Source: Vicingus serpentipes
GTDB lineage: Bacteria > Bacteroidota > Bacteroidia > Flavobacteriales_E > Vicingaceae
NCBI GenBank assembly: GCA_024103385.1
Contig: JAGFIT010000074.1
Span: 45,766-109,765, forward strand
Length of the DNA stretch: 64,000 nt
Reading direction: 5' to 3'
Shown here: one piece after another, positions 9,484 through 64,000 of the stretch
Layout of the letters: every line of letters begins with the position of its first letter
Position numbering within the stretch: the stretch's first letter is position 1
Translations under genes and position numbers: made by a program
The notes under the pieces: model-generated
Told to the model about the DNA's origin: nothing
What the model saw: the letters and a program-made list of their open reading frames with translations, nothing else
Databases searched by the model: none

Positions 9484-10602
9484 TTATTTAAACAATTGAA
9501 CTGCTTTGTTTACTGTGTGGCGTTCACCATCATCCCCTATTGCTATTATAGTTAAATAATAGGTTCCTGGAATCAATTTATTCCCGCTCATGTCAGTACC
9601 ATCCCATTTCCCCTCTATGCTATTCCATTCATAAACAACCTTACCACCAGAATTCATCACCCTTGCATTAAATACTTTAATATTTTCTCCTGTAATTTTC
9701 AATTCATCATTACTTCCGTCATTATTTGGCGTGATAACATTAGGAATTTCATTCTTATTTAAAACAGATGTCACATTTTTCTCTACTTCAATAAAATTAA
9801 CAACCGTTTTTGAATTAGCATTTTTATCTATTACAGTTAATGAAACTTTATATAGTCCTGGAGCTGCAAATGTATGGTAAGGTGATTTTTCGTTTGACAA
9901 ATCAGACCCATCAGCAAAATCCCAAAAATATTGGACTCCATTTCCTTCTGCTTCAAATTGAACATCTAAAGGAGCCTTGCCCGAAAAAACACTAGCTATA
10001 ATAGTTGCGTTTACTTCATCCTGAGTTTCTTTTGGCGATGACTCTTTTTGACTTTTTGATGGTTTTTTAACAGATTGTTTTGGTTGCTCCTTCTCTGGAT
10101 TTGCTGTTTCATTTAAAGGCTTATCATTTACTCTATCAGCCTTAACTTCTTCATTTGAAACAATCACGTCCTCTTTATTTCCTATATCTTCTTGAACTGG
10201 TTCTGAACTTATTTGATTCTTTTGATGGATTGAAAAATCTTCTTCAACTTCAACATCTAACTCCTGCTTTTTTATTTCGGGGGAATTTTGTTCAAGACCA
10301 ACATCACTTTGCGTTGTCAACTGTTCTTTAACCTCTAATTTACCTTCATTATTAGTAACAACAAAATAAGCTGAAGTCATTACTGCTGATACTGCAATGA
10401 CACCACCCGCTATCTTTAGTATTAATGCTTTAGTAAAAGTAGTGCTTAAAGATGGATTCGATTTAGGCAACGTATTACTAGGACTAGCGGTATTATTAAT
10501 GGAATGTTGCACGTTATTCCATACTGCTGGATCAACGTGAGCTTCAAACCCATCAAAAGCTTGTTTGAAAATTTCGTCTATTTTATCTATTCCTTCTTTC
10601 AT
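9484..10602 (-). CDS. Membrane-anchored anti-sigma-like protein with PKD domain and T9SS type-B (gliding motility-associated) C-terminal domain
   Basis: Starts 8 nt downstream of the ECF sigma gene. It has a hydrophilic N-terminus of about 58 aa, then a hydrophobic segment (ALILKIAGGVIAVSAVMTSAYFVV), an E/K-rich linker and a PKD-like segment (APLDVQFEAEG..WDFADGS..HTFAAPGLYKVSLTV). The C-terminus is IPNVITPNNDGSNDELKI..WDGTDMSGNKLIPGTYYL, typical of the type-B CTD. Confidence 0.75.
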   Translation of the reverse strand: MKEGIDKIDEIFKQAFDGFEAHVDPAVWNNVQHSINNTASPSNTLPKSNPSLSTTFTKALILKIAGGVIAVSAVMTSAYFVVTNNEGKLEVKEQLTTQSDVGLEQNSPEIKKQELDVEVEEDFSIHQKNQISSEPVQEDIGNKEDVIVSNEEVKADRVNDKPLNETANPEKEQPKQSVKKPSKSQKESSPKETQDEVNATIIASVFSGKAPLDVQFEAEGNGVQYFWDFADGSDLSNEKSPYHTFAAPGLYKVSLTVIDKNANSKTVVNFIEVEKNVTSVLNKNEIPNVITPNNDGSNDELKITGENIKVFNARVMNSGGKVVYEWNSIEGKWDGTDMSGNKLIPGTYYLTIIAIGDDGERHTVNKAVQLFK

Positions 10603-39910: not shown

Positions 39911-41902
39911 ATGAAAAAGTATTTACTATTTGCTTTTACATTAGGATTGATATCTTCTGCAGGCGCTCAAAACAAAAATGCTGCTGCTCGTTATGATTTC
40001 AACAAATTTGCATTTATTGACGATGATTCTCAAAATCAACTGATTAAACCTATTTCTATTCCTTATGATAAAGCATCATCTAAAATTCCTATCGGAACTT
40101 CTTACAACATCTATGGCATTTTAGGTGACAGACAAAATCAAGTGGTATATAATGCCGCTACAAATACCGTTGCTTTCGTTCATAGACAAAACAACGGTGG
40201 TTCTGGTCCTGCTGGAAAAGAAAGTGGAGTAATGTCATTTGATTATTCTACAGATGGAGGAGCCACTTGGACGGTAAACCCATTTCAAACCACGCCTACT
40301 TTAGGTGGTTTTAATGGGAACAGGTATCCAAATATTGGACTTTATAATCCGACAAGTAATACAGATCCTGCTAATGCATTCTTAATACAGGTTGGTCCTG
40401 CATTAGATCTTTTGGCTGGTGAATCTCAGTGGACTAGAACTTTTCGATCTTCATTCAAATTAGATGGCTCTAATTTAGAAGAGACTTACTCCTACAACTC
40501 TATTTTAGGCCCGAATAATGATCCTAATGATTGGGCTGCAGCTGGTTTATTTGTAAATGCGCAAGGTCACGCATGGTATGTTTCTACAACTTTTAACAAT
40601 CAAGGTCCTTTAGGTTCTGAAAACCCAGCATACAACGTTGCTGGAGATCTTCATGATTATTTCTTACATAAAGGTGTTTTCAATGCTGGTAATAATAATT
40701 TTGATTGGACAACAGTAGATACTATCACACCTAACTGGTATACGACTAGTGTTGACGGTACTTCAGGAGGAGCAAAAGTTAATGTTGCTGGATTAGCTAA
40801 CATGGCATGGTCTCCTAATGGAATGGTAGGTTATATGGTAGCTATGGGTGCTGATTCTAACGCTAATCAAAACACACAAATCAGACCTTATGTAGTAAAA
40901 ACAACAGACGCTGGTGTCACATGGAATAAAGTGGCTGATTTTGATTTTTCTACCGATTTTACTATTAATTGTGGATTAAGACCTATAGCCACTACTGGAG
41001 CAAAGAGAACATTCTTTAGCGCTTATGATATGGTAGTTGATGCCAATGGAGAATTAAGAATTTTTGCCAATGTTAGATCAGGTTTTTCTGATCATCCTGA
41101 TTCTTTGAATTATTTTTATAGTTTTTATGGAACAGGAAACCTTTTGTACGAAGTAGCTACAAAAGGATCAGGATGGGAAGTTACTTATATTGACTCTATT
41201 TATGTGGCAGATTTTGAGTGGGATGCAACAAATACTCTAAGTCATTATGTTAGACCTCAAGCTGCAAGAAGTCAAGATGGAACGAAAGTATTTTATACCT
41301 GGTTAACCACTGATCCTTTACTTAGTCTAGATAGAGAATTCCTTAACATGTCAGCTGTAGGACACGACATTAACACAGATAAATGGACTCCTGTTACCGA
41401 CTTAACTGTGGGTGTATCTGGAGCCGAATATGTTACCGCATACCCTACTATTGCTGTTGAGACCATTGAAAATGGAAGTGATAAAGAATACGAAATAGCA
41501 ACTGTTTTTGCTACTGATTTTAGCACTCAAGCTGATGTAACAAATGGACAAAACCCTACTCAATGGAACTTCTTAAAAGGAGTTGGTTTTGATCAAGCTG
41601 ATTTTACTAGAGATACCGTTAACCTTTGTGCTTTAGCTAATAGTATCGATGATAATAACAATATTAATGATATCAGTATCTCTGTTTACCCTAATCCAAC
41701 AAATGGAATTTTAGATATCCAATTAAGCACTAATGCTTTCAACTACACGATTACTGATATTGTTGGGAATATTATTGCAAACGATAATGTTGTTGGAGGA
41801 AAAACAACTATTGATCTTTCAAACAATGCCTTAGGTGTTTATTTAGTAACTATCAATACTGAAAATGGTTCAACAACCAAAAAAGTGCTATTAACTAAAT
41901 AA
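39911..41902 (+). CDS. Secreted BNR/Asp-box repeat protein with T9SS type-A C-terminal sorting domain
   Basis: Signal peptide MKKYLLFAFTLGLISSAGAQ. Asp-boxes STDGGATW and TTDAGVTW. C-terminus ISVYPNPTNGILDIQL..GVYLVTINTENGSTTKKVLLTK. Confidence 0.75.
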   Translation: MKKYLLFAFTLGLISSAGAQNKNAAARYDFNKFAFIDDDSQNQLIKPISIPYDKASSKIPIGTSYNIYGILGDRQNQVVYNAATNTVAFVHRQNNGGSGPAGKESGVMSFDYSTDGGATWTVNPFQTTPTLGGFNGNRYPNIGLYNPTSNTDPANAFLIQVGPALDLLAGESQWTRTFRSSFKLDGSNLEETYSYNSILGPNNDPNDWAAAGLFVNAQGHAWYVSTTFNNQGPLGSENPAYNVAGDLHDYFLHKGVFNAGNNNFDWTTVDTITPNWYTTSVDGTSGGAKVNVAGLANMAWSPNGMVGYMVAMGADSNANQNTQIRPYVVKTTDAGVTWNKVADFDFSTDFTINCGLRPIATTGAKRTFFSAYDMVVDANGELRIFANVRSGFSDHPDSLNYFYSFYGTGNLLYEVATKGSGWEVTYIDSIYVADFEWDATNTLSHYVRPQAARSQDGTKVFYTWLTTDPLLSLDREFLNMSAVGHDINTDKWTPVTDLTVGVSGAEYVTAYPTIAVETIENGSDKEYEIATVFATDFSTQADVTNGQNPTQWNFLKGVGFDQADFTRDTVNLCALANSIDDNNNINDISISVYPNPTNGILDIQLSTNAFNYTITDIVGNIIANDNVVGGKTTIDLSNNALGVYLVTINTENGSTTKKVLLTK

Positions 41903-51777: not shown

Positions 51778-54700
51778 TTATTTAAAATTATATTGCACTT
51801 TACTAACTACTCGATCCCCATTCTGAGTTTCTTTATAAGTCGCAATAATATTTCCTGCATTATCATACTCATATCGAGTATAAAAGTTGTCATTACTAAT
51901 CGTAGCTTTTACTATACCTAATCGTTCATCATAAACATATCCTGTAAACTGTGCATCAACTGGGTGAACCACTAAATCATCAAAATAAGCTACTCCGCCT
52001 GACCCGGGGTTTTCGACATAAACTCTAAAGTCGTTATCATTACTTCCTCCTGATGAAACATAATTAGAAGGAACATCAAACGTTAAGTTTAATTGTATCC
52101 AATCTCCTATTTGTAATCCATTCGGACTATCTCTTCTTATTGTTTTATTGTCTGTTACATTTCCATCCAATTTAAATACGAGTTGAGCATCATCTGGGCT
52201 ATCTTTGTGGACCCACACACTCGCCATATAAGTTCGCCCCACTTGAATTCCTTGTTCAAATGTTTCATCCTCAACAGTAGTATTATCTACAATGGCTTTA
52301 AAAATTGGTCCCTCACTCGAAGTGGGTACTTCTACCATATAATCTCCAGTATGTGGTACAACAGTTCCTACTGTAGTTTTTTGCACTCCACTTCCTTTTT
52401 CCACCTCTCCGTCAAAATGAAATAAACTGGTTTCTACTTCTTTGGTACTTTCAAATCCAGAATATGCAAAACTGGTATAATTACAATTAGATACTTCAGC
52501 TATTTTATAACGTTCATCATAACCAAATTTAATAGCAGAATAGCCATCTTTCGTATCTTTTTTTTCTAATCGTTTATCTCCATTTTTTCCTCCATACAAA
52601 GTACTACTGGTTAATAATTTCCATGTACCTCCGTTATTTATCAATAGATTAACAGGAGAAAACACACCGCTTTCTATAGATGTTGCATATTTATCATTCA
52701 CATCATCCCATGCTCTAACTAAAAGATCATTGTCCCAATCATATTTTTTACCACTACCATTACTTTCTGTTTCTTGCTGAATCGGAGTTAAAATATTTAA
52801 GTTCGACCAATCATCTGTTTTTGCTCCCATACTCGAGTTGGATTCATAAGCAAAACTTTTGGCAAGGATATTTTTATTATATCCAGATGTTTGAGAAGTT
52901 ATTAACCTTGGCTGCCCAGTAAAATTATCTCTTCCATCATAAGTAATAATAGTGGTGATTCCATTCATCACTCTTGTTTCTTTTTTTAGATGTGTTATAA
53001 TGTTTGTTCTAGAAAAAATATTTTTAAATACTTTCCATTTATTAATACCGGTTTGAAAATCATCATATTTATAAAAAACTTCCTGAACAGTTCCTATAGG
53101 TCCAGACGTTTCATCACTATATTCATAATCTGTTTTTGACACAATAGCACCATTGTCATCGTAATTAATTATATTTTTTGGTTGACCAAAGCCAGATTTT
53201 GAGAACATTTTGGTTACCCCTAATTCATAATCAATAATTTTACCATTAACTATTTTTGTAACTTCTTCTTTAGAAACATGAGGGCGGTAAAGGTTTAAAT
53301 AGTTTTTATAATTATGCTCTATTGAACCAATATTAGATTGTTCATCACCAATAAATACTTTAACTTTGGAGTAACCGACTGTAGGAGCAGGAGCATGCCG
53401 ATCTCCGGCATGAGTAGATTTTATTAATGTATAACCATTACTACGTTGATACCTGTCCGGTTCTACCGTAGCAATTCCTTGCTCATAAGAATAAGTTAAT
53501 TTATATTCCGCTGCTGAATGAGGATCGGTTAAAGAAATCTCTTTCACTCGAGTACCGCCTCCATACACCTCTTTTAAGATGAGCTCTTTATATTGATCTC
53601 CATAAGCCGAAAATGTATTCGTGCTGATAGCATTACCATTAGCACTGTATAAATCAATATTGTCTTCTTCTGAACTTTTAAAAATTCTTGTTGGAGCTAA
53701 AGGGAAGTTATATTTGACGTTATCATAAACCACTCCATTATAGGTGTCCGATTCATATTCAACATTGATTTCTCCTCCTGATGGTGTGGTTATCTCACTT
53801 AAAGACCATGCATCTACCTGATCGTCATCTGCTGAAGTAATGTATTGGTCTCTTAAGGTTGAATTATGATTCGCTTGATAAAATCCAAAAATATCTTGTT
53901 TTTCATGTGTGTAATCAGGGTTCTCAGTATTGTATTCAAATAAGTAGGGATCTTGTGTTTGGTGATGATTTAAATCAAACATGGTTACCTTATTTAAGGT
54001 CAATTTACCACTCATGTCTAAACTTCCGCTAGTGGATGAATAAGAACCATCTTTATAGACTTCATATGACCCTCCACTATAGGTAAAATTAGTAGGTGTT
54101 TCATTAAAAGTATTGTTAATATTATTGGGCATTTTTTTGGCTAAATGATAATCATAATCAAAATCTATAATTTTTAGCGCATTGTTCTCTATAGCTGTTT
54201 GATAATAAGCATAATCTTCCACGGTTAATATATCTGTCACATTGGCAACTGTTTCTAAATCTTCTGTAAAAGCGGTACTTTCTGCATCCTGTGGAGAACT
54301 AAATATATTATTATTTTCAACATCATCGTTATCCATTAAAACAATATATTTTAAGTAGAGTTTTGGTGTGTATACGGAAGAATCATTCGCTACACTGTGA
54401 TCATCATTTCGAATCCCTTTTATAAAATAAGCGGTTTGTGTAGCTGTTTGTATTGATTCTGGATAATAAACCTGAGAACTACCTTTAGTAATAGAACCAC
54501 TAGGAGCATATTCTTCAACACCTTCTATAAATGAAGTGTTATTTTCGGATGTAAAATCAGGATAAAAATTATAATAGGGGAACCTCCAGTCAAATTTTTC
54601 TGTCCACTTGGAATAATTAATTCTAATCCAATAGCCTTTATCTCCGTCATCAGGAATATTATTTTCATTAGTATCTTCATAATAAGGACCCGTAATAGCT

Positions 54701-55860
54701 GTTAATTTCCAAGTATAGGCATACTTCTTATTTTTAGTATGTTTACTTACCTTTTTTATAGAAGTATAATCCATATTTTCTGTTTCGAAAACAACTATTT
54801 CATCATCATAAGTATATACTGGTAATGAATAATGATACATCATTCCATTAGGAGTGGTTATATTAAAAGCTTCTATACCATCAGGGTCATATTTATCAGG
54901 ATCTAATCTTTCAGAAGTACTAGAAGCAAAATAATGGGCCTTATAATCTAAGAATTTTTCATGTGGGTAATATACAGTTTCTTGCATACGATATATATCA
55001 CTATTAGTAAAGAATTGAATAAAATTTCCTGCATCGAAACCAATATTGTAGTGGTAAGGAGCTTGAACTTTTTTATCTTTTATTTTCCATGTCCTCCCTA
55101 TATTATAATTTCCTGATGAGGGTTCTAAATAACTGGTCAGTTTAAGATTGTCGGTTACCCTCATAAAGTTAGTCAGATCTTCATCAATTGCTATATTAGC
55201 CATAGGTTCATTAACAAATCTAAACATGGGTTTTTCATAAAAAAATTTAATATCTCTATAACTATCTGATCCTGAGTAAGGATAATATTCAGCAAAATCG
55301 AACAGAAACGGACGCATTAACCCTGAGATACTCGGACCACTGACATAATAATCATCATAATCAGGAAAAATAAAAGGAGTATCTTCACTTTTTAATCCTC
55401 TTTTAGTAGCGTATAAATCCATCTTTGAATAACGGCCTTCTTTAAAAGGATATAGTCCACCAAAATACATGGGACCATAAACATTAGAAAGAGAGGCTGT
55501 AGTCCATTGATTAGAAATAGGAACAAGCAATTGGCTTTTTAACTCAACGTTATTGTGATCATCAGGTATCCCTTTAACTTGTCTTGTTATTTCTCCAATA
55601 TTTAAATTCCACCCTAAACCTACCCATGTGGCTTGTTGATTTACAGATATTCCTCCTGCATACCCCAAATTTAAAGGAAAGCTCTCACCATTGGGGCCAC
55701 TTACTGTTATTAAAGGAATATTATAACTAAAATCTCCTGTAAAGGGATTGACATGATTGGATAGCTGCTTTGCAGGCGCATCTACTTTTTCTTCTTGTGC
55801 ATTTAGCTGAAAAGCTATTGTTATTGCTAATAGTGCAAAGGTGGTTTTTATTAAATTCAT
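51778..55860 (-). CDS. Large secreted protein with SpvB/TcB-like N-terminal domain and YD-repeat-like C-terminus
   Basis: Signal peptide MNLIKTTFALLAITIAFQLNAQ. NPFTGDFSYNIPLITVSGPNGESFPLNLGYAGGISVNQQATWVGLGWNLNIGEITRQVKGIPDD resembles the SpvB/TcdB N-terminal motif (..LSLPLPIS.GRG..P.F.L.Y.S..GN..FGLGW.....I.RR...G.P.Y). Ends ..YTRYEYDNAGNIIATYKETQNGDRV. No RHS core (DPxGL) and no T9SS CTD were recognised. Confidence 0.6.
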   Translation of the reverse strand: MNLIKTTFALLAITIAFQLNAQEEKVDAPAKQLSNHVNPFTGDFSYNIPLITVSGPNGESFPLNLGYAGGISVNQQATWVGLGWNLNIGEITRQVKGIPDDHNNVELKSQLLVPISNQWTTASLSNVYGPMYFGGLYPFKEGRYSKMDLYATKRGLKSEDTPFIFPDYDDYYVSGPSISGLMRPFLFDFAEYYPYSGSDSYRDIKFFYEKPMFRFVNEPMANIAIDEDLTNFMRVTDNLKLTSYLEPSSGNYNIGRTWKIKDKKVQAPYHYNIGFDAGNFIQFFTNSDIYRMQETVYYPHEKFLDYKAHYFASSTSERLDPDKYDPDGIEAFNITTPNGMMYHYSLPVYTYDDEIVVFETENMDYTSIKKVSKHTKNKKYAYTWKLTAITGPYYEDTNENNIPDDGDKGYWIRINYSKWTEKFDWRFPYYNFYPDFTSENNTSFIEGVEEYAPSGSITKGSSQVYYPESIQTATQTAYFIKGIRNDDHSVANDSSVYTPKLYLKYIVLMDNDDVENNNIFSSPQDAESTAFTEDLETVANVTDILTVEDYAYYQTAIENNALKIIDFDYDYHLAKKMPNNINNTFNETPTNFTYSGGSYEVYKDGSYSSTSGSLDMSGKLTLNKVTMFDLNHHQTQDPYLFEYNTENPDYTHEKQDIFGFYQANHNSTLRDQYITSADDDQVDAWSLSEITTPSGGEINVEYESDTYNGVVYDNVKYNFPLAPTRIFKSSEEDNIDLYSANGNAISTNTFSAYGDQYKELILKEVYGGGTRVKEISLTDPHSAAEYKLTYSYEQGIATVEPDRYQRSNGYTLIKSTHAGDRHAPAPTVGYSKVKVFIGDEQSNIGSIEHNYKNYLNLYRPHVSKEEVTKIVNGKIIDYELGVTKMFSKSGFGQPKNIINYDDNGAIVSKTDYEYSDETSGPIGTVQEVFYKYDDFQTGINKWKVFKNIFSRTNIITHLKKETRVMNGITTIITYDGRDNFTGQPRLITSQTSGYNKNILAKSFAYESNSSMGAKTDDWSNLNILTPIQQETESNGSGKKYDWDNDLLVRAWDDVNDKYATSIESGVFSPVNLLINNGGTWKLLTSSTLYGGKNGDKRLEKKDTKDGYSAIKFGYDERYKIAEVSNCNYTSFAYSGFESTKEVETSLFHFDGEVEKGSGVQKTTVGTVVPHTGDYMVEVPTSSEGPIFKAIVDNTTVEDETFEQGIQVGRTYMASVWVHKDSPDDAQLVFKLDGNVTDNKTIRRDSPNGLQIGDWIQLNLTFDVPSNYVSSGGSNDNDFRVYVENPGSGGVAYFDDLVVHPVDAQFTGYVYDERLGIVKATISNDNFYTRYEYDNAGNIIATYKETQNGDRVVSKVQYNFK

Positions 55861-55885: not shown

Positions 55886-57628
55886 CTATTCTTTTATGAT
55901 CTTTTTTACTACTCTTTCGTTAGACGTGATGATTTCTATAAAATAAACTCCTGGTTTTAAGTTTTCTAACACCACTTCTCTATTTCTAGTCGTCTTTTCA
56001 AAAAGTTGTTGTCCCGTTACATCAACTATTTTAATGGTTATTAAATCATCATTATCTAAACCGTTGATATACAATCTTTCTTTTACAGGGTTTGGAAAAA
56101 CTACCACCTCTTTTCCTTTCTTATTTTTAGTCAAAATTCCTGTTGTAGTACAACCTAAACTATTATTGGCGTATAAATTTTTTATTTCATCTACATATTG
56201 AATAAATAAATTTTTACCTATAGACACTCCGGGGCTATTACTTTGTGCAAAGACGTAAGCCAGCTCTATTTGTTGAATAGCTCCAGGTGAAAATGTAACA
56301 GGGCCCATGCTTCCTACGCTTTTATTATCACTAGCCAATAAAGTATTATCATCTTTGTCCCAAGAGGAAGATGAAGTAGTGTACCCATTTGTTCCATACC
56401 CTGTAGGGTCTGATGATCCAGGGTAAACAAAACGAGCACGATAATTCCCTGGGTGAGCCCAAGGTGCATAACCCATATTCCCATAATAAAGTAGACTACC
56501 ATCTGCCCAAACTGCATTCATAATACCATGTAATTGGTAATCCGTATTAGGTAAATCACGCCATGTTGCTCCATCCCATGGTATTAAAGCTTGATACATA
56601 AATGAAGTCATTCCTAAGCGTTCGTTATCATTAATACCATCTCCAAAACCGATACCATTCGGACTAGCTGATATAGCATTATCATTTCCATCGGCATCCA
56701 TCCATGGTCCAGATAAAATCACCACTCCTTGTGTGGGGTGGTAATTTCCATAACCCAACGTTGCACCGGAGTTATCATCAGGTCCATTTTCATCAAATTG
56801 AAAGTAGCAACCCCTAGTTACATCACATTGTACATATTCATTGTATGCATTTCCAATGTCTATGTCTGTCCATGCTCCAAAGTAAAAATCGTTGTAAGTA
56901 GTGGTGCTTCGGTTAATAATCTTATACTCCACAAAAACGGTATTGTTTAATGATGGGGTTCCATTGCAACTATAGGCGTATACCATTTGATGTATTTCTA
57001 CTCCTATGGGTGTTCCTCCACTCCATTGATGGGTAGTGTAGTCGTTATAAATGGTATAGGTAGCCACATCTCCTTTTATTTTAGGGTAATCTCCATCAAC
57101 CGGAAAATAGAAATTATCATTATCTACATCTACAAATGGAGCTAAATTTTGCGCATAACCTAAACTAATATCTCCGTGTGCCGGCCAATCTTCAATATCT
57201 TGAGGTACAACATAACCAGGATCATTAATCGCCCCTGTTTTAACAGCTATGTGGTAATCTATTTCTGCTTGGGTGACTTTCCATACCCTGTCGTATTCTA
57301 ACCGTATGGTAGGAGTAGTTGTTCCCGAAAGGGTTAACGGACCGCTGCTAAAGTCAGTACTGTCTGCATAATAAGTACTTGCTGCCAAATGAGTAGCATT
57401 GCCCAACCATAAATTGGCAGCATATACACTATGTTTACCACTTCCTTTAGGTGCTTCAAAACCAGGGGTTTGTTGGCTAGGATCACCAAATAAAAAGCCT
57501 TTGGTGTTTACCTGTGCGTTAATGTTGTTGGCATCCAGTTGTTGGGAAGATTGTGAAAACCCCAATTGAACATTGAAAAACAAAACAGTAATAACTAGGG
57601 TTATTAATTTATTATAATCTTTATTCAT
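55886..57628 (-). CDS. Secreted protein of unknown function with T9SS type-A C-terminal sorting domain
   Basis: Signal peptide. C-terminus VVVFPNPVKERLYINGL..IKIVDVTGQQLF..LKPGVYFIEIITSNERVVKKIIKE. Confidence 0.75.
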   Translation of the reverse strand: MNKDYNKLITLVITVLFFNVQLGFSQSSQQLDANNINAQVNTKGFLFGDPSQQTPGFEAPKGSGKHSVYAANLWLGNATHLAASTYYADSTDFSSGPLTLSGTTTPTIRLEYDRVWKVTQAEIDYHIAVKTGAINDPGYVVPQDIEDWPAHGDISLGYAQNLAPFVDVDNDNFYFPVDGDYPKIKGDVATYTIYNDYTTHQWSGGTPIGVEIHQMVYAYSCNGTPSLNNTVFVEYKIINRSTTTYNDFYFGAWTDIDIGNAYNEYVQCDVTRGCYFQFDENGPDDNSGATLGYGNYHPTQGVVILSGPWMDADGNDNAISASPNGIGFGDGINDNERLGMTSFMYQALIPWDGATWRDLPNTDYQLHGIMNAVWADGSLLYYGNMGYAPWAHPGNYRARFVYPGSSDPTGYGTNGYTTSSSSWDKDDNTLLASDNKSVGSMGPVTFSPGAIQQIELAYVFAQSNSPGVSIGKNLFIQYVDEIKNLYANNSLGCTTTGILTKNKKGKEVVVFPNPVKERLYINGLDNDDLITIKIVDVTGQQLFEKTTRNREVVLENLKPGVYFIEIITSNERVVKKIIKE

Positions 57629-58043
57629 GATTTGTGCTACATTTTTTTAATATTTCAATTTTTTGAAGGTTTGTCATGTCAAGAAATTTTTCATGAATTA
57701 ACGTGTAGTACTTTTCTCTATATGTTCCTTTCTGTTTCTTATTCCATTTTCCACTCTGTAAATAAGAACCTACGTCTTCAAGTAAAGTTATTTCTTCATC
57801 CTTTAGTAAGGAAATATTAACACTACTATCTTTAACATTAATGTCATAAGAGAAAGAAAGCTGTTTATAAGAAGAATTGCTTTTTTGAAGAATAAAATAA
57901 AAATACCCATGTTCTATTTTTTTATAATAAGTCTTTATCAAAACCTTTTCTTCAACTTGCTCCTTGCATGTCGCATTAGAAATAAACATTACTGATAAAA
58001 ATATAAGTGACTTCATTTTTTTATTTAAAGTAAGAATTCCCAT
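57621..58043 (-). CDS. Small exported hypothetical protein
   Basis: 140 aa with a signal-like MKSLIFLSVMFISNATC. Its stop overlaps the start of the downstream T9SS cargo gene by 8 nt. Confidence 0.5.
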   Translation of the reverse strand: MGILTLNKKMKSLIFLSVMFISNATCKEQVEEKVLIKTYYKKIEHGYFYFILQKSNSSYKQLSFSYDINVKDSSVNISLLKDEEITLLEDVGSYLQSGKWNKKQKGTYREKYYTLIHEKFLDMTNLQKIEILKKCSTNHE

Positions 58044-58045
58044 TA

Positions 58046-58360
58046 TTATTCGTCTAGTTCTTTTTTTACTGTAATTGCTTTTATCTTCATATACTCTTCC
58101 TCTGTTAAATCATATTCATAACTTCGAGAAATATCAATAAGTCGAGTTTTAGTCAGTAATAGACAAAAACATTCATTAGAATTACATATTTCTACTACCA
58201 TTTCTATTCCTGACACCTTTTGTTGATGATGTTTTTGAGGTTTAAATTCTTTTAAAATATCACTTAACTCTAACAGTTTTTCTTTACTCAATAGATCCTT
58301 ATTTTCCTTTAATTTAAAATAGGACGCTCTTAGACTCATTGTCGTTACCAACTTTATCAA
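58046..58360 (-). CDS. Small cytoplasmic hypothetical protein
   Basis: 104 aa from a TTG start (97 aa from ATG 58339). No signal peptide. Ends 2 nt before the next gene. Confidence 0.45.
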   Translation of the reverse strand: MIKLVTTMSLRASYFKLKENKDLLSKEKLLELSDILKEFKPQKHHQQKVSGIEMVVEICNSNECFCLLLTKTRLIDISRSYEYDLTEEEYMKIKAITVKKELDE

Positions 58361-58455: not shown

Positions 58456-59646
58456 TTATTCATAATTATTCCTAAATATTGTTTTATTCCCTGATGGTAT
58501 AAAATTATTTGTATCTATTTTCAACTCTTTTTCAATTTTTTTACTTTCTATATCAAGTAGTACCAATTTGAGATCAATACCTTCTCCCACTACTCCCACT
58601 AATTTTTCCTTTCCATATACATACTTAAAATTGTACATTTCTACAGAGTCTGTATAGTGACCGTAGGAAATAGGAACATTATTTATAGAATCAATAATCA
58701 ATTCAAGGGTATTATTTTCATAATTAAATTTATATATTTTATCGGTTTTGAATAATACATAAGGCTCTTTATAGTGCTGGGCAGATTTGCTAATTAAAGG
58801 GTTTAGATCAAGAACTTCTTTCATAGAACGGGATTTATATTCTTGACAAACATCTATTGTTATTTCTTCCATCCTTCCACTTTCTACATTAACTAACCCA
58901 TTAAAATTATTCTTATATGGCTTCCTATTGCTAATTACAGTATATTTCTCTTTAATACGTGTGTAATCTATACTTGGAGATTTTTTCTCCCACCAGTTAA
59001 GTTCCGTCTCAAACGAAATAAATAAATATTTACTATTAGGTATTAATATGATATCATAAATCCAACTAGTTATACAGTTGGTAGTTATTCTTCGAAGATT
59101 TTTTCCGTCAACCCCAATAGCAAATATGTCTTGGCATTTTTCTAAACTTTTCTCAATTTCTAAGGTGTCATTAAATAAAGCTCCTCCGATAAAATAGATA
59201 ATACTATCATTTTGACTAAAAATTACTTTAGTGATATATATATCTTCATCTATTAACTTATTACAATTAGTTCCATCTGAATCTATTATATATAATTTAT
59301 TATTTCCTCCAAAAATATTACCTCTTTTAAATATTATCTTTTTACCATTATGAGAAATTACAGGTGAAAAATCTGAATTCCCATCCTCTGTAATTTGTTT
59401 TAAAAATCCAGTATTAAGGTTTATACTACAGATAGCTCTTCCTTTTTTATTGTTATATGCAAAATAGATGTCATTATCTATAGAAACATCAATATCTGTA
59501 GGAAAAATTTGATTATCAATAACGGCTATTTGCTTATAGGGTTTTCCTCTATCATTAATAAAATTAACTGTTTCACATCCGAACAAAGCTATTCCTATCA
59601 ATAAAGCTATTACATATTTTAGTCGAAAGATTTCTATGATTACCAT
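58456..59646 (-). CDS. Lipoprotein with TolB/PD40-like beta-propeller motifs; candidate RHS immunity protein
   Basis: Lipobox LIGIALFGC. DGNSDFSPVISHNGKKIIFKR..LYIIDSDGTNCNKL and IFAIGVDGKNLRRIT resemble PD40 repeats. Its start overlaps the RHS stop in ATGGTAA (59640..59646). Confidence 0.6.
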   Translation of the reverse strand: MVIIEIFRLKYVIALLIGIALFGCETVNFINDRGKPYKQIAVIDNQIFPTDIDVSIDNDIYFAYNNKKGRAICSINLNTGFLKQITEDGNSDFSPVISHNGKKIIFKRGNIFGGNNKLYIIDSDGTNCNKLIDEDIYITKVIFSQNDSIIYFIGGALFNDTLEIEKSLEKCQDIFAIGVDGKNLRRITTNCITSWIYDIILIPNSKYLFISFETELNWWEKKSPSIDYTRIKEKYTVISNRKPYKNNFNGLVNVESGRMEEITIDVCQEYKSRSMKEVLDLNPLISKSAQHYKEPYVLFKTDKIYKFNYENNTLELIIDSINNVPISYGHYTDSVEMYNFKYVYGKEKLVGVVGEGIDLKLVLLDIESKKIEKELKIDTNNFIPSGNKTIFRNNYE

Positions 59647-62600
59647 CTTTTATATGTATATGGATATAAGGTTTTGATTGTTGTCGTTATCATAAATGAC
59701 GTTCGTATTAGTCTAGCACTATTAAGAACTTGTTGAGATGCCCCGCTTTGTATAATGGACGTCATCCCTTTTATTAAGGAATAATCAGCTGGTGTTACAT
59801 TTGTATTAAAGAGCACTCCCTTAATTCCATCTGCCCCTTTGTTAAAATAAGCTAAATCATGGTTAAACCCTCCAAAATTATCACCTAATCCATCTAATAT
59901 TCCTTTTTGTTTGTAAAAAAGAAATTCTTCTGGGGATATATTTTTTGGGCTATTTCCTGCATATTGAGCTGACCCTTTCTCTTTATTTAATACCTTATTT
60001 AATTTTGTGTCTGTTGCTTTATCATATATATTCTTAAGTTCTTCTTCGGAATAATTATTAGCGTTTCTATTCGCTGCTTTAAGTTTGTTTAAGCCTGTTA
60101 GAACATCAGAAAAATTTGCAGCAGCTCCCATACCATAAACAAAATTCTCAAATCCTGAATTTCCCTTTTCTAACAAGTACCCCCAATCATTTTGAGTAAA
60201 GTTATAAGAACCCACTCCAAATGAAACAGAAAAATTATGATTTCCAGTATAAGCACTAGTTCCTATGGATTGTATAGTTGATCCAGCAATTATCGCCATT
60301 GTATTTGCAAAAGGACCTCCAGCACTAGCTATTGCCGAACTAGCACCACCAGAAAGCCCTCCAACTACAGCCCCAGCAATCATAAACCCCCATGTTTTTT
60401 TAGAATGAAAATTCCAGTTTAATGGGTTAAAGCTACCATTAGCCGTAGTACCTCCTATGTATGCTCCTATGGCCGCACCAACAATAAGTGCTGTAACTAC
60501 AAACTCTCCATCAGGGTCAATACTACTTATCGGGTTATTCCCCATTGCCAAATAAGGAGAATAAAACTGGCTGGCAGGGTCGGTGGTGATCCAACGACCT
60601 AACCTAGCGTCCCATAAACGAGCTTCAAAATCATACAATCCGTTTTGGTCTAACTCTTTCCCCTGATAGCCATAGGTCAATAAGTTTACAGAACTAGTTA
60701 GGCTACGCCCAGGTAATATTCCTCCAAAAGGATAATAGTCGCCAGCACTAATTACTTGTAATGCCCCCGTATTTTCTCTAAAGGTTGCTCTTACATTACC
60801 CAAATGGTCATACAAATGGTAACGACTTGCCGAAGTAGAAGGATCATAAGACCCTAATTGGTTTAATCCATACAAATTATATTCTGTAACCGTTGTGCTA
60901 CCCACTACATCTTTATCATAAATACTTACCACTTGTCCTGATAAGTCTTGAACATAGTAAATTTCTTGAATAGGAGTAGTACCACCTGTTCCATTATAAA
61001 TTTCTTTCTTTATTCGTTTTCCTGCAGGATTGTATTTGAACTTTAAAAATAAATTCCCATTGAGCAATACCTCTTTAGCTAATCCACTTTGATAATAAGT
61101 ATAAGTCTTATTTTCTGAAGCATCTGCTGTTAATTCACCTATGGCATTATAAGTATAATTAGCTGCACTTTGAGTCTCTATATCTGAGGTGTAAGATGAA
61201 CTACTTACGCCATCTGTAACGTAAGTTAGCTGGTTATTCACTTTTACCACGTCTCCATCCTCTGATTGAGTGGTAGTAGTATAGTTATAAGTGAATTCAT
61301 CCATTCCTACACCAGTAGTGGTATTTCCATTTCTATCCAAAGCAGTAATATTTCCGTTTTTATCATAGGTGATGCCACTCACTTCAAATTGGCTATTGGC
61401 ATCTGCAACAAAACCTTCCCAATCACTCCCAACTACTTCGCTTTCATTTTGATTTCCAAAAGGCTCGTAAGTTCCAAATGTAGCTGATGCTAACCAATTA
61501 AAATCATTGTATTCGTATTGATAGACATTTTGTAATCCATAAGAAGTTAAGTTAGTAGATATAGAAGGGGCTTCTAAATTCCATCTTACTTGATTAATGG
61601 TACTTGTGAATTTTTCGTTGGTTCCTTCTCCGTAATTAATGTAAGTCCCTGTCCTTTTATAATCATCCACATGATAGTCGATGACCATGCCAAACACATC
61701 AGCAAATACCCCATTATTAGTAGGGCTATCAGCTCCTGGGTCTGAAAACACTCCATTTCCGGTAGCAATTCCTAAATTAGGGGAATTGATGGCCTTTAAT
61801 TTCCCTGTAACGGTATATACATAATCCACCCCTTGTAAATCATCACCTAACACCGTTCTTTTTAATGCTCCATGCTGATAATATTCGTAATTCGCCTGAA
61901 CATCATAATTGGTACCGTCTTCACTTGTTTCTACTTTAATGAGTTGTTGCTCTCCATTATAGGTGTTTTGATGTTCAAAGTATTCAGCATCGTCTTTTTG
62001 ATATATGGTTTTGGACACATTACCGGCTGCATCATATTCATAATGCATGGTCTTATATTCGTCCATATCAACTAGGTATTCTATCGTCCATATTACTCTT
62101 CCATACATATCGTAACTGTACCAAGTAATGCTATTGTCATTCCATACTTTAGATACTCTTCCCAACAAATAAGTTTGTTCATAAGTAGTGTAAGGTGATG
62201 TGTTAAATGGGTAATGCGAAGAAGATGAAACATCTGCTACATCATATAGGGTATATATTTGTTCTGAGCATCTTGCATCATCAATTCCATCCTCATCGTC
62301 CAACATACTCAACACAGAAACTTCTCCACCGCCCAAAGCAGGTTCTTCTTGGTAATTCTGAAATTGTAATGCTGCAGATTGACTGTAGTCATACACTCCT
62401 GTTTCTACCTCTCTTCCTGCTCTATCGTAGTTAACGTAGCTAAATATTTCATCTTGCTGCTGTTGTGCATTTTGCTGAAACCTGATTCTCCCTCGTGAAT
62501 CGTATACAAACTCAGTACTTCCTTTATCTGGTGTAGTTTCCTTTACTCGTTGGTCTAAAGCATCATACTCATAAGTATCTTCCATACCGTGGGAAATATT

Positions 62601-64000
62601 ATCGTTTGGCAAGGGTGCTGTGGTATGTGTCATATAAGTAAAGAAACGAAGGTACTTGGCAAATTGATGAGTTGGGTAAGAAGCATTGAAAGGTAAGAAA
62701 TAACCTGGAGATTGAGCTACCCATATGGATTTAATGTTGATTTCTATCCCTCCCGGATAATTGTTGAGTTCTTCATTATCAATGATAATATCAGGCAACC
62801 CTGCTAAAGAAGTTTGATCCCATAAATATTCACACTCACAGGTTTTGTAAAGTTTAGGATAAACAGCGTAAGTATAAGGAATCGTAGTTACACTTCCATC
62901 TGGATTCACATATCCTTTTCCTCCGCTGCCATTATCAATTAATATTTCTATATTAAAATTAAATGTTGCTACTAACTTCGGATCTACTCCATAACAAGGG
63001 TCTGGGGTCAATAAACAACTTCCACCTACATCAACTCCTGTTTCATCGCAATCCATAATTCCATTGCTACAATGACCATCATCCCCCCAAGGAATATCGC
63101 ATGGATCAGGAGGAGTATTCGTACTCGCTTCACTAATTATTCCTCCGTTATCTAAAACAACATTCCCATCTGTATCAACCAATACAAAAGAATTATCATT
63201 TTTAGGTTCTACCGGATAGTACCCTTCTGCTTCTATATCTTCGATGTAATCTTCATGATTGGTAATTATTGTTTGTAAATCCTGGTATTCTTCTATTAAA
63301 ATGGTTTTCTCATTTTTTAGTTTTGTTAATTCGATAACATTTCTACAAGCATTATTTACCCATGTAGGATCACTACTTTCTATACTGCCTGTGGTACCTA
63401 GCAGAGCATTTTCATCGGATACTATTTCTAGTACATTCTGACCACTCGCTTCATTCATTTCGCAATTGGCAATCAAGTAGGGAGTAGATGAGAGAAGGTA
63501 AGCATTAATATAGTTAGAGATTTGATCGTCTGTTCTAGCTATATTCCATACTCGAACATCAGAAATATTTCCTTTAAACGGATTTGAGTTGGTTTTTGAC
63601 AACCCTATTCTTAATGTTGACCCTGTAGTGATATCTGGAGAACCTGAGATAACCTTTGTCCCTAAAAGAAAACCATCTACATAAAATGAAAGCATAGTAT
63701 CTTCTCTAGTAATAGCGACATGATGACAAGTGCTGTCTAGAATAGTAGTATCAAGCGCTCCATTGTTTTCCAGATAATATTCCACCCCTTCCAATTGAAC
63801 TGCTAACATTTTGTATAGTGATGTGGTACCGGTGGTGTCTTTAAAGAAAAAAATGGCTCCTGTTGTATCCACCGTATTGTTACAAAATATAATTGGGTCA
63901 CTGCCAACACTATCTTCATCTGCTCTAATAGTTGCTTCAAAAGTAAAGTCCCCATCTTCAATGGTATCTATTATAGAGGGTGTTACATCAACTAGGTCAT
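59640..64000 (-). CDS. LamG-domain YD/RHS repeat polymorphic toxin (5' end beyond window) with 286-aa variable C-terminal domain
   Basis: The track 'start' at 63872 is an in-frame GTG. Hand translation stays open to position 64000 (..DFTFEATIRADEDSVGSDPIIFCNNTVDTTG..). LamG-like LSFYVDGF..ISDVRVWN. Many YD repeats (YEYDALDQR, YSYDMYGRV, YEYDAAGNV). RHS core end YGYQGKELDQNGLYDFEARLWDARLGRWITTDP..GNNPISSIDPDGEF at about 60501..60750. Confidence 0.9.
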   Translation of the reverse strand, partial: DLVDVTPSIIDTIEDGDFTFEATIRADEDSVGSDPIIFCNNTVDTTGAIFFFKDTTGTTSLYKMLAVQLEGVEYYLENNGALDTTILDSTCHHVAITREDTMLSFYVDGFLLGTKVISGSPDITTGSTLRIGLSKTNSNPFKGNISDVRVWNIARTDDQISNYINAYLLSSTPYLIANCEMNEASGQNVLEIVSDENALLGTTGSIESSDPTWVNNACRNVIELTKLKNEKTILIEEYQDLQTIITNHEDYIEDIEAEGYYPVEPKNDNSFVLVDTDGNVVLDNGGIISEASTNTPPDPCDIPWGDDGHCSNGIMDCDETGVDVGGSCLLTPDPCYGVDPKLVATFNFNIEILIDNGSGGKGYVNPDGSVTTIPYTYAVYPKLYKTCECEYLWDQTSLAGLPDIIIDNEELNNYPGGIEINIKSIWVAQSPGYFLPFNASYPTHQFAKYLRFFTYMTHTTAPLPNDNISHGMEDTYEYDALDQRVKETTPDKGSTEFVYDSRGRIRFQQNAQQQQDEIFSYVNYDRAGREVETGVYDYSQSAALQFQNYQEEPALGGGEVSVLSMLDDEDGIDDARCSEQIYTLYDVADVSSSSHYPFNTSPYTTYEQTYLLGRVSKVWNDNSITWYSYDMYGRVIWTIEYLVDMDEYKTMHYEYDAAGNVSKTIYQKDDAEYFEHQNTYNGEQQLIKVETSEDGTNYDVQANYEYYQHGALKRTVLGDDLQGVDYVYTVTGKLKAINSPNLGIATGNGVFSDPGADSPTNNGVFADVFGMVIDYHVDDYKRTGTYINYGEGTNEKFTSTINQVRWNLEAPSISTNLTSYGLQNVYQYEYNDFNWLASATFGTYEPFGNQNESEVVGSDWEGFVADANSQFEVSGITYDKNGNITALDRNGNTTTGVGMDEFTYNYTTTTQSEDGDVVKVNNQLTYVTDGVSSSSYTSDIETQSAANYTYNAIGELTADASENKTYTYYQSGLAKEVLLNGNLFLKFKYNPAGKRIKKEIYNGTGGTTPIQEIYYVQDLSGQVVSIYDKDVVGSTTVTEYNLYGLNQLGSYDPSTSASRYHLYDHLGNVRATFRENTGALQVISAGDYYPFGGILPGRSLTSSVNLLTYGYQGKELDQNGLYDFEARLWDARLGRWITTDPASQFYSPYLAMGNNPISSIDPDGEFVVTALIVGAAIGAYIGGTTANGSFNPLNWNFHSKKTWGFMIAGAVVGGLSGGASSAIASAGGPFANTMAIIAGSTIQSIGTSAYTGNHNFSVSFGVGSYNFTQNDWGYLLEKGNSGFENFVYGMGAAANFSDVLTGLNKLKAANRNANNYSEEELKNIYDKATDTKLNKVLNKEKGSAQYAGNSPKNISPEEFLFYKQKGILDGLGDNFGGFNHDLAYFNKGADGIKGVLFNTNVTPADYSLIKGMTSIIQSGASQQVLNSARLIRTSFMITTTIKTLYPYTYKRW

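Follow-up and report, generated by a model that had tools for sequence, protein, structure and literature searches.

An Rhs polymorphic toxin of Vicingus serpentipes with a predicted phospholipase A2-like tip and a hydrophobic module related to mosquito SGS1

Analysis of a 64,000-nucleotide stretch of the Vicingus serpentipes genome (contig JAGFIT010000074.1, positions 45,766 to 109,765 of the forward strand; hereafter the window, with coordinates counted from its first letter) identified an Rhs polymorphic toxin whose tip, carrier module and immunity families are all without Pfam models, and whose carrier module has an unexpected sequence link to the mosquito protein SGS1. The tip appears, from its sequence, to belong to or adjoin the parvovirus-type family of phospholipase A2 (PLA2). 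The window is chromosomal, and its PheT is 70% identical to that of metagenome-assembled genomes of the Vicingaceae-like Flavobacteriales. On balance, the evidence favours a protein that would act as a membrane-tethered, calcium-dependent phospholipase on the envelope of target cells and would be neutralised by an exported lipoprotein.

The Rhs gene is located on the minus strand, where its open reading frame (ORF; 59640..63872) runs upstream beyond the window end. Its product represents the C-terminal 1410 residues of the full-length protein P0003 (2207 amino acids), recovered as an identical protein by exhaustive search, which possesses a Sec signal peptide, DUF6443 and Laminin_G_3 domains, RHS repeats and an Rhs-associated core. 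The Rhs/YD-repeat body occupies 60519..64000 of the window, with its N-terminus lost at the window end. Several hallmarks of Rhs/YD polymorphic toxins are present, namely the repeats (TIGR01643, 28.4 bits, cut-off 15.8), the core domain with its aspartyl autoprotease (60507..60737, minus strand; TIGR03696 Rhs_assc_core, 54.5 bits, cut-off 32.5, profile positions 1-75 of 76), a PxxxxDPxG-type motif (PISSIDPDGEF) and a variable tail. The core match stops at the DPDG motif at the end of the domain, and the predicted self-cleavage site, DPDGEF (60501..60518, minus strand), aligns with the DPDG of SGS1 at residue 2729. Translation of 59640-60530 on the minus strand showed the core to end in ...NNPISSIDPDGEF; a further 286 residues separate this sequence from a TAA stop codon at 59640-59642. 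By analogy with Tc toxins, the tail would be expected to be cut after DPDGE.

This tail is composed of two parts, a pre-toxin module (tail residues 1-135; 60096..60500, minus strand) and a variable tip carrying the PLA2-like toxin domain (residues 136-286; 59643..60095, minus strand). A word-indexed protein search returned only two partial relatives, P0001 and P0002, whose similarity is confined to the module: they are 51% identical over residues 1-135 and then continue into an unrelated Cys/His end domain. A scan for the module, using two short patterns and one genome per GTDB species, found it in at least 63 loci, nearly all of them in Bacteroidota, with carriers including Tannerella forsythia ATCC 43037, Flavobacterium, Cryomorpha, Bacteroides and Butyricimonas; in most of the 63, DPxG and the stop codon are 274-329 amino acids apart. 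The last 125 residues of these loci sort into unrelated groups: Cys/His tips (44 of 63), PLA2-like tips (six, of which five cluster together and one, in locus L141, was assigned from its motifs), HExxH tips, an M23-like tip and singletons. As residues 1-135 are shared across loci that end in unrelated tips, they are taken to form a conserved pre-toxin module and residues 136-286 a polymorphic tip. The first-pass annotation of this DNA had placed SSIDPDGEF at the core end with 286 residues after it, which translation confirmed (59643-60500, minus strand), and had divided these residues into a hydrophobic segment and an end domain. That division holds, but its boundary at about residue 90 does not: the conserved module reaches to about residue 135, leaving a tip of about 151 residues.

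The Cys/His tips (loci L093-L147, 44 loci, together with P0001 and P0002) share conserved GH...SC[VS]xHT[AS]RAL...G(I)HP motifs without a Pfam match. They make up an unnamed toxin family that is widespread on the Rhs proteins of Bacteroidota and is represented in T. forsythia ATCC 43037 (L103). A short aromatic-rich C-terminal tail is common among otherwise unrelated tips, occurring in the window protein (59643-59666), L148, P0011, P0001 and others; these tails read YPYTYKRW, FFYPFW, LFPW and YLYQIP.

The pre-toxin module contains a strongly hydrophobic segment. Residues 1-90 after DPDGEF contain 18% Gly, 17% Ala and 2.2% charged residues, with many small-xxx-small-xxx-small runs and 19-residue hydropathy peaks of 1.69 and 1.46, in keeping with the Gly/Ala-rich hydrophobic stretch described in the first-pass annotation. 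The module comprises three hydrophobic helices rich in Gly and Ala, a loop with the pattern N-P-x-x-W...S-x-x-T-W and a hairpin region reading SVSFGVGSYNF; no Pfam model covering the module was found. As a single sequence, the tail matched mosquito SGS1 (PDB accession no. 8fjp) with an E-value of 2e-7, and a five-sequence profile of the module matched SGS1 (E 2e-11) and SGS4 (E 5e-9). The SGS1 alignment begins precisely at the DPDG autoprotease site (residue 2729), with weak repeats of the match on two further SGS1 units. It has been described that the post-cleavage segment of SGS1, of about 230 residues with six predicted transmembrane helices, is packed inside the Rhs shell in cryo-electron microscopy, and membrane insertion of those helices has been proposed by the same authors (PMC9935623). 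Because of this homology and the equivalent position, the module of the window protein is suggested to be the bacterial equivalent of the SGS1 post-cleavage helices. The hint of membrane insertion given in the first-pass annotation thereby gains support, the segment being homologous to SGS1 helices that are predicted to be transmembrane.

Comparison of the module with SGS1 and SGS4 (PDB accession nos. 8fjp and 9on3) shows that in each case the segment starts at the DPDG site of an Rhs/YD shell and is followed by a separate C-terminal domain, with a common signature, G-A-x-x-G-A-Y-x-G-x-x-x-A-N-x-x-x-N-P-x-x-W...T-W. SGS1 differs in possessing three copies of the unit, where the window protein has one plus the hairpin region (which is without an SGS1 match), and in ending with the arthropod-only Tox-SGS domain. 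Storage inside the shell is an observation made for SGS1 only, and membrane insertion is a prediction there too.

An exhaustive phmmer search with the 151-residue tip returned 10 clusters among 1.84 billion (1.84e9) representative proteins, three of them large Rhs-type proteins and the others short or fragmentary; the matches include P0011 (E 2.1e-5) and P0012 (E 1.3e-4). The module scan contributed five or six further GTDB members, and a family alignment was made of 13 diverse members with identities down to 19%. Invariant in this alignment are G47 (the Gly of YxG), P55, H79, D80, G90 and L107. Tyr or Phe stands two positions before G47 in all 13 members, and Tyr83 and Asp104 are each kept in 10 of the 13. 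G47, H79, D80, Tyr83 and Asp104 fall in three putative PLA2 motifs, all on the minus strand: Y-A-G-N-S (tip Y45-S49; 59949..59963), the counterpart of the YxGxG calcium loop; H-D-L-A-Y (H79-Y83; 59847..59861), the counterpart of the catalytic HDxxY; and Asp104 of PADY (59784..59786), which by profile alignment corresponds to the second catalytic Asp (D175 of parvovirus B19). An HDxxY motif some 34 residues past QYAGNS had already been reported from the sequence, and translation places the Tyr of QYAGNS (59961-59963) exactly 34 residues ahead of the His of GFNHDLAYF, with the HD pair at 59856-59861. In the single sequence alone the motif is suggestive: among 200,000 composition-matched shuffles, HDxxY arose in 0.28%, HDxxY with an upstream YxG in 0.039%, and both with a further downstream Asp in 0.02%. 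It is raised above chance because G47 and the H79-D80 pair are invariant in 13 diverged relatives. The calcium loops of distant members (YTGPG, YLGPTG, YIGPNG, NYLGP) have the textbook form, and the tip is without Cys, as in viral PLA2.

The window tail had no meaningful match in Pfam, NCBIfam, PHROGs or PADLOC. Scanning GTDB genomes and the contigs of metagenomes and viruses with patterns for the tip yielded no match (the GTDB relatives surfaced solely via the module scan), a family-profile query of the word-indexed protein search returned just two family members, and tblastn of the tip and of P0012 against phage genomes gave nothing useful. Two other enzyme assignments were considered for the tail and set aside. 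An HD-domain phosphohydrolase is not supported by the family alignment, which lacks a conserved upstream His and further Asp, and the sole candidate for a GxSxG lipase motif, GLSGG, sits in a Gly-rich helix and is not conserved in P0001.

Several relatives carry the tip in other arrangements. P0005 (240 amino acids) is a stand-alone form that lacks an Rhs body: its signal peptide is of the Sec type, and only the second half of the module precedes its PLA2-like tip. Its toxin part is nearly identical to residues 1290-1444 of P0007, the end of that 1444-amino-acid Rhs protein. The PLA2-like tip of P0009 (L001, 2070-4114; also L003 and L005-L008) follows a truncated YD-shell fragment broken by a stop codon and a frameshift, and lies near resolvase genes in L001 and L005. 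The arrangement, for which 17 P0009-bearing contigs were examined, resembles a cassette of toxin and immunity genes that is orphaned or mobile. P0011 (L009, 5448-10396) was called as a 131-amino-acid gene right after a 1499-amino-acid SpvB/TcdB/YD-shell protein with a Gly-rich hydrophobic end, and the two are probably one gene split by a frameshift. This locus has no lipoprotein homologue downstream, where proteins with type IX secretion system (T9SS) tails are found instead.

The relationship of the tip to known PLA2 enzymes was revealed by its more distant relatives. P0012 matches the parvovirus-type family PF08398 (Phospholip_A2_4) with 23.6 bits (E 6.5e-5, profile positions 3-70 of 80) and P0011 with 21.5 bits (E 2.8e-4), against a cut-off of 23.9, and two GTDB tips match it weakly (E 0.08 and 0.1). 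PF08398 is the only family matched by four tip members; the other recurrent match, to DegS, is below cut-off and involves two members, and no other PLA2 family in Pfam was matched by tip members. Profile comparisons were made with hhalign, using 25 PF08398-annotated proteins, and P0011 with P0012 as a bridge. The bridge pair aligns with the core family including the window tip at 98.9% probability (E 3.4e-17, 103 columns) and with PF08398 at 90.2% (P 1.5e-6). The full 13-member family aligns with PF08398 at P 2e-4 over 53 columns and the core family without the bridge at P 0.0027. In the full-family alignment QYAGNS pairs with KYLGPGNS, HDLAY with HDEAY and PADYSLI with PADQRFI, so that YxG, HD and AD are all in register. 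A null of 151 column-shuffled versions of the PF08398 alignment scored 8.8 +/- 1.7 with maxima of 13.8-17.5, compared with observed scores of 31.6, 41.7 and 24.9; the core family without the bridge gave 24.9 against a null maximum of 16.8, and the score of 31.6 stands against a null maximum of 13.8. It has been described that residues Y130, G132, H153, D154, Y157 and D175 of the B19 VP1u are each required for activity (PMC3626588), and the window tip is identical at all six matching positions (Y45, G47, H79, D80, Y83 and D104). D104 lies 25 residues past H79, where about 22 are expected for a parvovirus-type PLA2, and it aligns with the Asp of the viral AD.

The tip is thus probably a true PLA2 homologue, a view that we hold with some confidence. 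The resemblance to PLA2 that the first-pass annotation had guessed from motifs is supported at family level by the invariant residues, the near-cut-off PF08398 matches and the profile comparisons, and no confident match to an unrelated fold competed with it in the family, PDB or Foldseek searches. Like the PLA2 of parvovirus VP1u, the tip would be a small Cys-free helical domain with YxG, HDxxY and a downstream A-D in equal order and register, carried on a larger delivery particle and acting on a membrane barrier (on the side of the tip, a prediction). It differs in having an extra C-terminal helix with the aromatic tail, and in its bacterial setting, where it forms part of an Rhs protein and has a predicted immunity gene beside it.

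A number of observations weigh against this assignment. The PF08398 gathering score was reached by no family member, the tip of the window itself has no Pfam hit at E <= 10, and the hhalign probabilities for the direct comparison with PF08398 are modest (47% for the full family, 11% for the core family without the bridge). Asn replaces the second Asp in three of the 13 members and His replaces the Tyr of HDxxY in two. The position of the essential Tyr168 of B19, which falls in the [LF]FNT motif of the tip family alignment, appears to be Phe, judging from the alignment of P0011 and P0012. The spacer between the calcium loop and HD is 34 residues, compared with about 22 in viruses. Ser stands in place of the second Gly of YxGxG; YLGPF sequences of the adeno-associated virus type are likewise without the last Gly. 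As regards structure, AlphaFold2 modelling of the tip on nine sequences gave an all-alpha model of moderate confidence only (predicted local distance difference test score, pLDDT, 60.6; predicted template modelling score 0.55). When this model was compared with PDB and BFVD in Foldseek, nothing had E < 1. Capsid proteins from parvoviruses and densoviruses were frequent among the top BFVD rows, but all had E > 1 and are suggestive only. PDB sequences were also queried with P0011, P0012 and a profile of the tip, without a match, and a single-sequence model of the 286-residue tail was useless (pLDDT 34).

On the strength of these observations, the tip could instead be an envelope toxin that uses the invariant His-Asp pair without being a PLA2, acting on another lipid or cell-wall substrate or non-catalytically, in which case the resemblance to PF08398 would be convergent or too weak to carry function. 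We consider this unlikely, as the three PLA2 motifs fall in register across independent comparisons, the scores lie far over those of the shuffled controls, and no enzymatic family other than PF08398 recurs among the members.

Directly downstream of the toxin, and overlapping its stop codon by 7 nucleotides, lies a gene for a 396-amino-acid lipoprotein (58456..59646, minus strand) with a lipobox, LFGC, and TolB/PD40-like propeller blades, which is the predicted cognate immunity protein. The TolB/PD40 matches are weak and far below cut-offs, and this exact sequence is not on record. Homologues of the lipoprotein are encoded directly 3' of PLA2-like tips in three other loci, namely L091 (46% identity over 389 amino acids), the P0009 cassette of L001 (28%, E 1e-13) and L131 of Cryomorpha ignava (25%, E 2e-7). 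Two more divergent PLA2-like tips are directly followed by unrelated short lipoproteins, and the Cys/His tips by a different gene family. As the downstream gene varies with the tip and not with the module, the tip is the likely toxic part at which protection is aimed. The export of the immunity protein in turn points to a toxin that acts in the envelope, consistent with a lipid-hydrolysing enzyme. From its sequence and position, the overlapping lipoprotein gene probably protects the producer.

Two further genes of this kind follow on the minus strand. A 140-amino-acid exported protein (orf140; 57621..58043) shows 32-36% identity (E about 1e-15) to the gene right after Cys/His-tipped Rhs genes in L138, L116 and L144, and because of this kinship it is regarded as an orphan immunity gene, with no cognate toxin encoded in the window. 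A 104-amino-acid ORF (orf104; 58046..58360), which matches a stretch 3' of the Rhs gene in L146, is a possible orphan immunity gene. The Rhs body and module have a guanine-cytosine (GC) content of 0.37-0.40, which falls to 0.32 over the tip and to 0.26-0.27 over the three genes downstream, a drop that is typical of exchanged toxin/immunity cassettes.

Taken as a PLA2-like envelope toxin, the protein may work as follows. The tail, once cut after DPDGE, would stay enclosed by the Rhs shell until the toxin is delivered to a neighbouring bacterium. The helices would then exit and enter one of the membranes of the target envelope, so that the PLA2-like domain is tethered where it meets the lipid. 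Together with calcium, its His-Asp dyad would hydrolyse phospholipids and destroy membrane integrity, and in the periplasm of the producer and its siblings the TolB-like propeller lipoprotein would bind and block the tip.

Two other readings concern the part of the tail that does the damage and the cells against which it is directed. The glycine-zipper segment might itself be a pore-forming toxin, like effectors of other secretion systems, with the end domain merely assisting. Its strong hydrophobicity and abundance of small-xxx-small runs would suit such a role, as would a weak Gly-zipper_YMGG match (13.1 bits, cut-off 28.9) and the membrane insertion proposed for the homologous SGS1 helices (PMC9935623). 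However, tips of at least six unrelated types follow this module and bear enzyme-like motifs (Cys/His, HExxH, M23-like and PLA2-like among them), and the change of the downstream gene with the tip and not with the module indicates protection directed at the tip; a pore formed by the zipper is therefore very unlikely. It is no less improbable that the targets are eukaryotic cells (host or grazer membranes), as for Tc toxins or SGS1, rather than rival bacteria. Both parvoviral PLA2 and SGS1 have eukaryotic membranes as their target, SpvB/TcdB-type parts occur in P0007 and at the P0011 locus, and Pfam scans of the Rhs protein and 20 of the larger neighbouring ORFs detected no type VI secretion system (T6SS), PAAR or VgrG domains and no contact-dependent delivery genes within the 64 kb. 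Against such a target stand the linked and co-varying exported lipoprotein and the orphan immunity genes with their GC drop, which together are the signature of an interbacterial polymorphic toxin; periplasmic immunity, moreover, is rarely needed by toxins directed at eukaryotes.

The envelope toxin proposed here can be set beside several known systems. The Tle phospholipase effectors of the T6SS are antibacterial, act from the periplasm and have Tli immunity proteins, exported or lipoproteins, that neutralise them; they are delivered by the T6SS and their folds are alpha/beta-hydrolase (GxSxG) or phospholipase D, not PLA2. The window locus resembles Tle/Tli in pairing a lipid-hydrolysing toxin (here predicted) with an exported lipoprotein immunity protein, but Pfam scans of the Rhs protein and 20 of the larger neighbouring ORFs showed neither T6SS, PAAR or VgrG context nor a domain with a GxSxG or HxKxxxxD catalytic motif. 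With TcC of the Tc toxins and the Rhs cocoon toxins it shares the YD shell, the aspartyl self-cleavage motif and the variable C-terminal toxin, encapsulation being assumed here by likeness; it differs from them in the conserved hydrophobic module between the cleavage site and the variable toxin. For RHS-repeat and filamentous toxins, Tox-PLA2 was predicted in 2012 as a C-terminal toxin domain (Zhang et al. 2012, PMC3482391), and in common with it the window protein has a predicted PLA2-fold domain as the C-terminal tip of an RHS toxin. Tox-PLA2 is of the Streptomyces type (PDB accession no. 1kp4), with the Cys-containing motifs DxC[ST] and CxxHxxxYxN and no immunity family listed, and lipoprotein immunity was exceptional in that survey (PMC3482391). 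As the tip has no Cys and neither of these motifs, it was not assigned to the Streptomyces-type Tox-PLA2. Literature searches uncovered no description of bacterial toxins of the PF08398 type, nor of Rhs proteins with DUF6443.

Further from the toxin, the housekeeping genes of the window are interspersed with genes for PorP/SprF, a component of the T9SS, and for several T9SS cargo proteins with CHU_C and Por_Secre_tail domains (1178-2302, 9484-10602 and 39911-41902). A 580-amino-acid protein with a T9SS sorting domain (55886-57628, minus strand) has a homologue at the equivalent position after the Rhs locus in L091. It adjoins a secreted protein of 1360 amino acids (51778-55860, minus strand) with no Pfam match and a single YD-like repeat at its end; this protein was rejected as a partner of the Rhs protein, as the similarity is not significant.

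The analysis brings to light a toxin family that had no annotation, together with its candidate active site and a candidate immunity family to match, and shows a conserved module of predicted membrane helices carrying interchangeable tips in at least 63 representative genomes. A predicted PLA2-fold, lipid-targeting weapon is thereby added to the Rhs systems of Bacteroidota, whose delivery and targets are poorly known. The structure of the C-terminal helices of SGS1 has been solved, and the bacterial module would provide a tractable model for the study of their function. More tentatively, and with somewhat less than even confidence, it may be suggested that a parvovirus-type PLA2 fold serves here as a membrane-tethered antibacterial Rhs toxin with propeller-lipoprotein immunity, and that the module is the counterpart, possibly the source, of the SGS1 helices. 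If this is true, viral PLA2 and the Rhs tip would share ancestry, and the exit of Rhs-shell helices from the cocoon into a membrane would become testable in a simple bacterial system. The parvovirus-type PLA2 would then extend into bacterial conflict systems, which bears on the origin of the viral enzyme.

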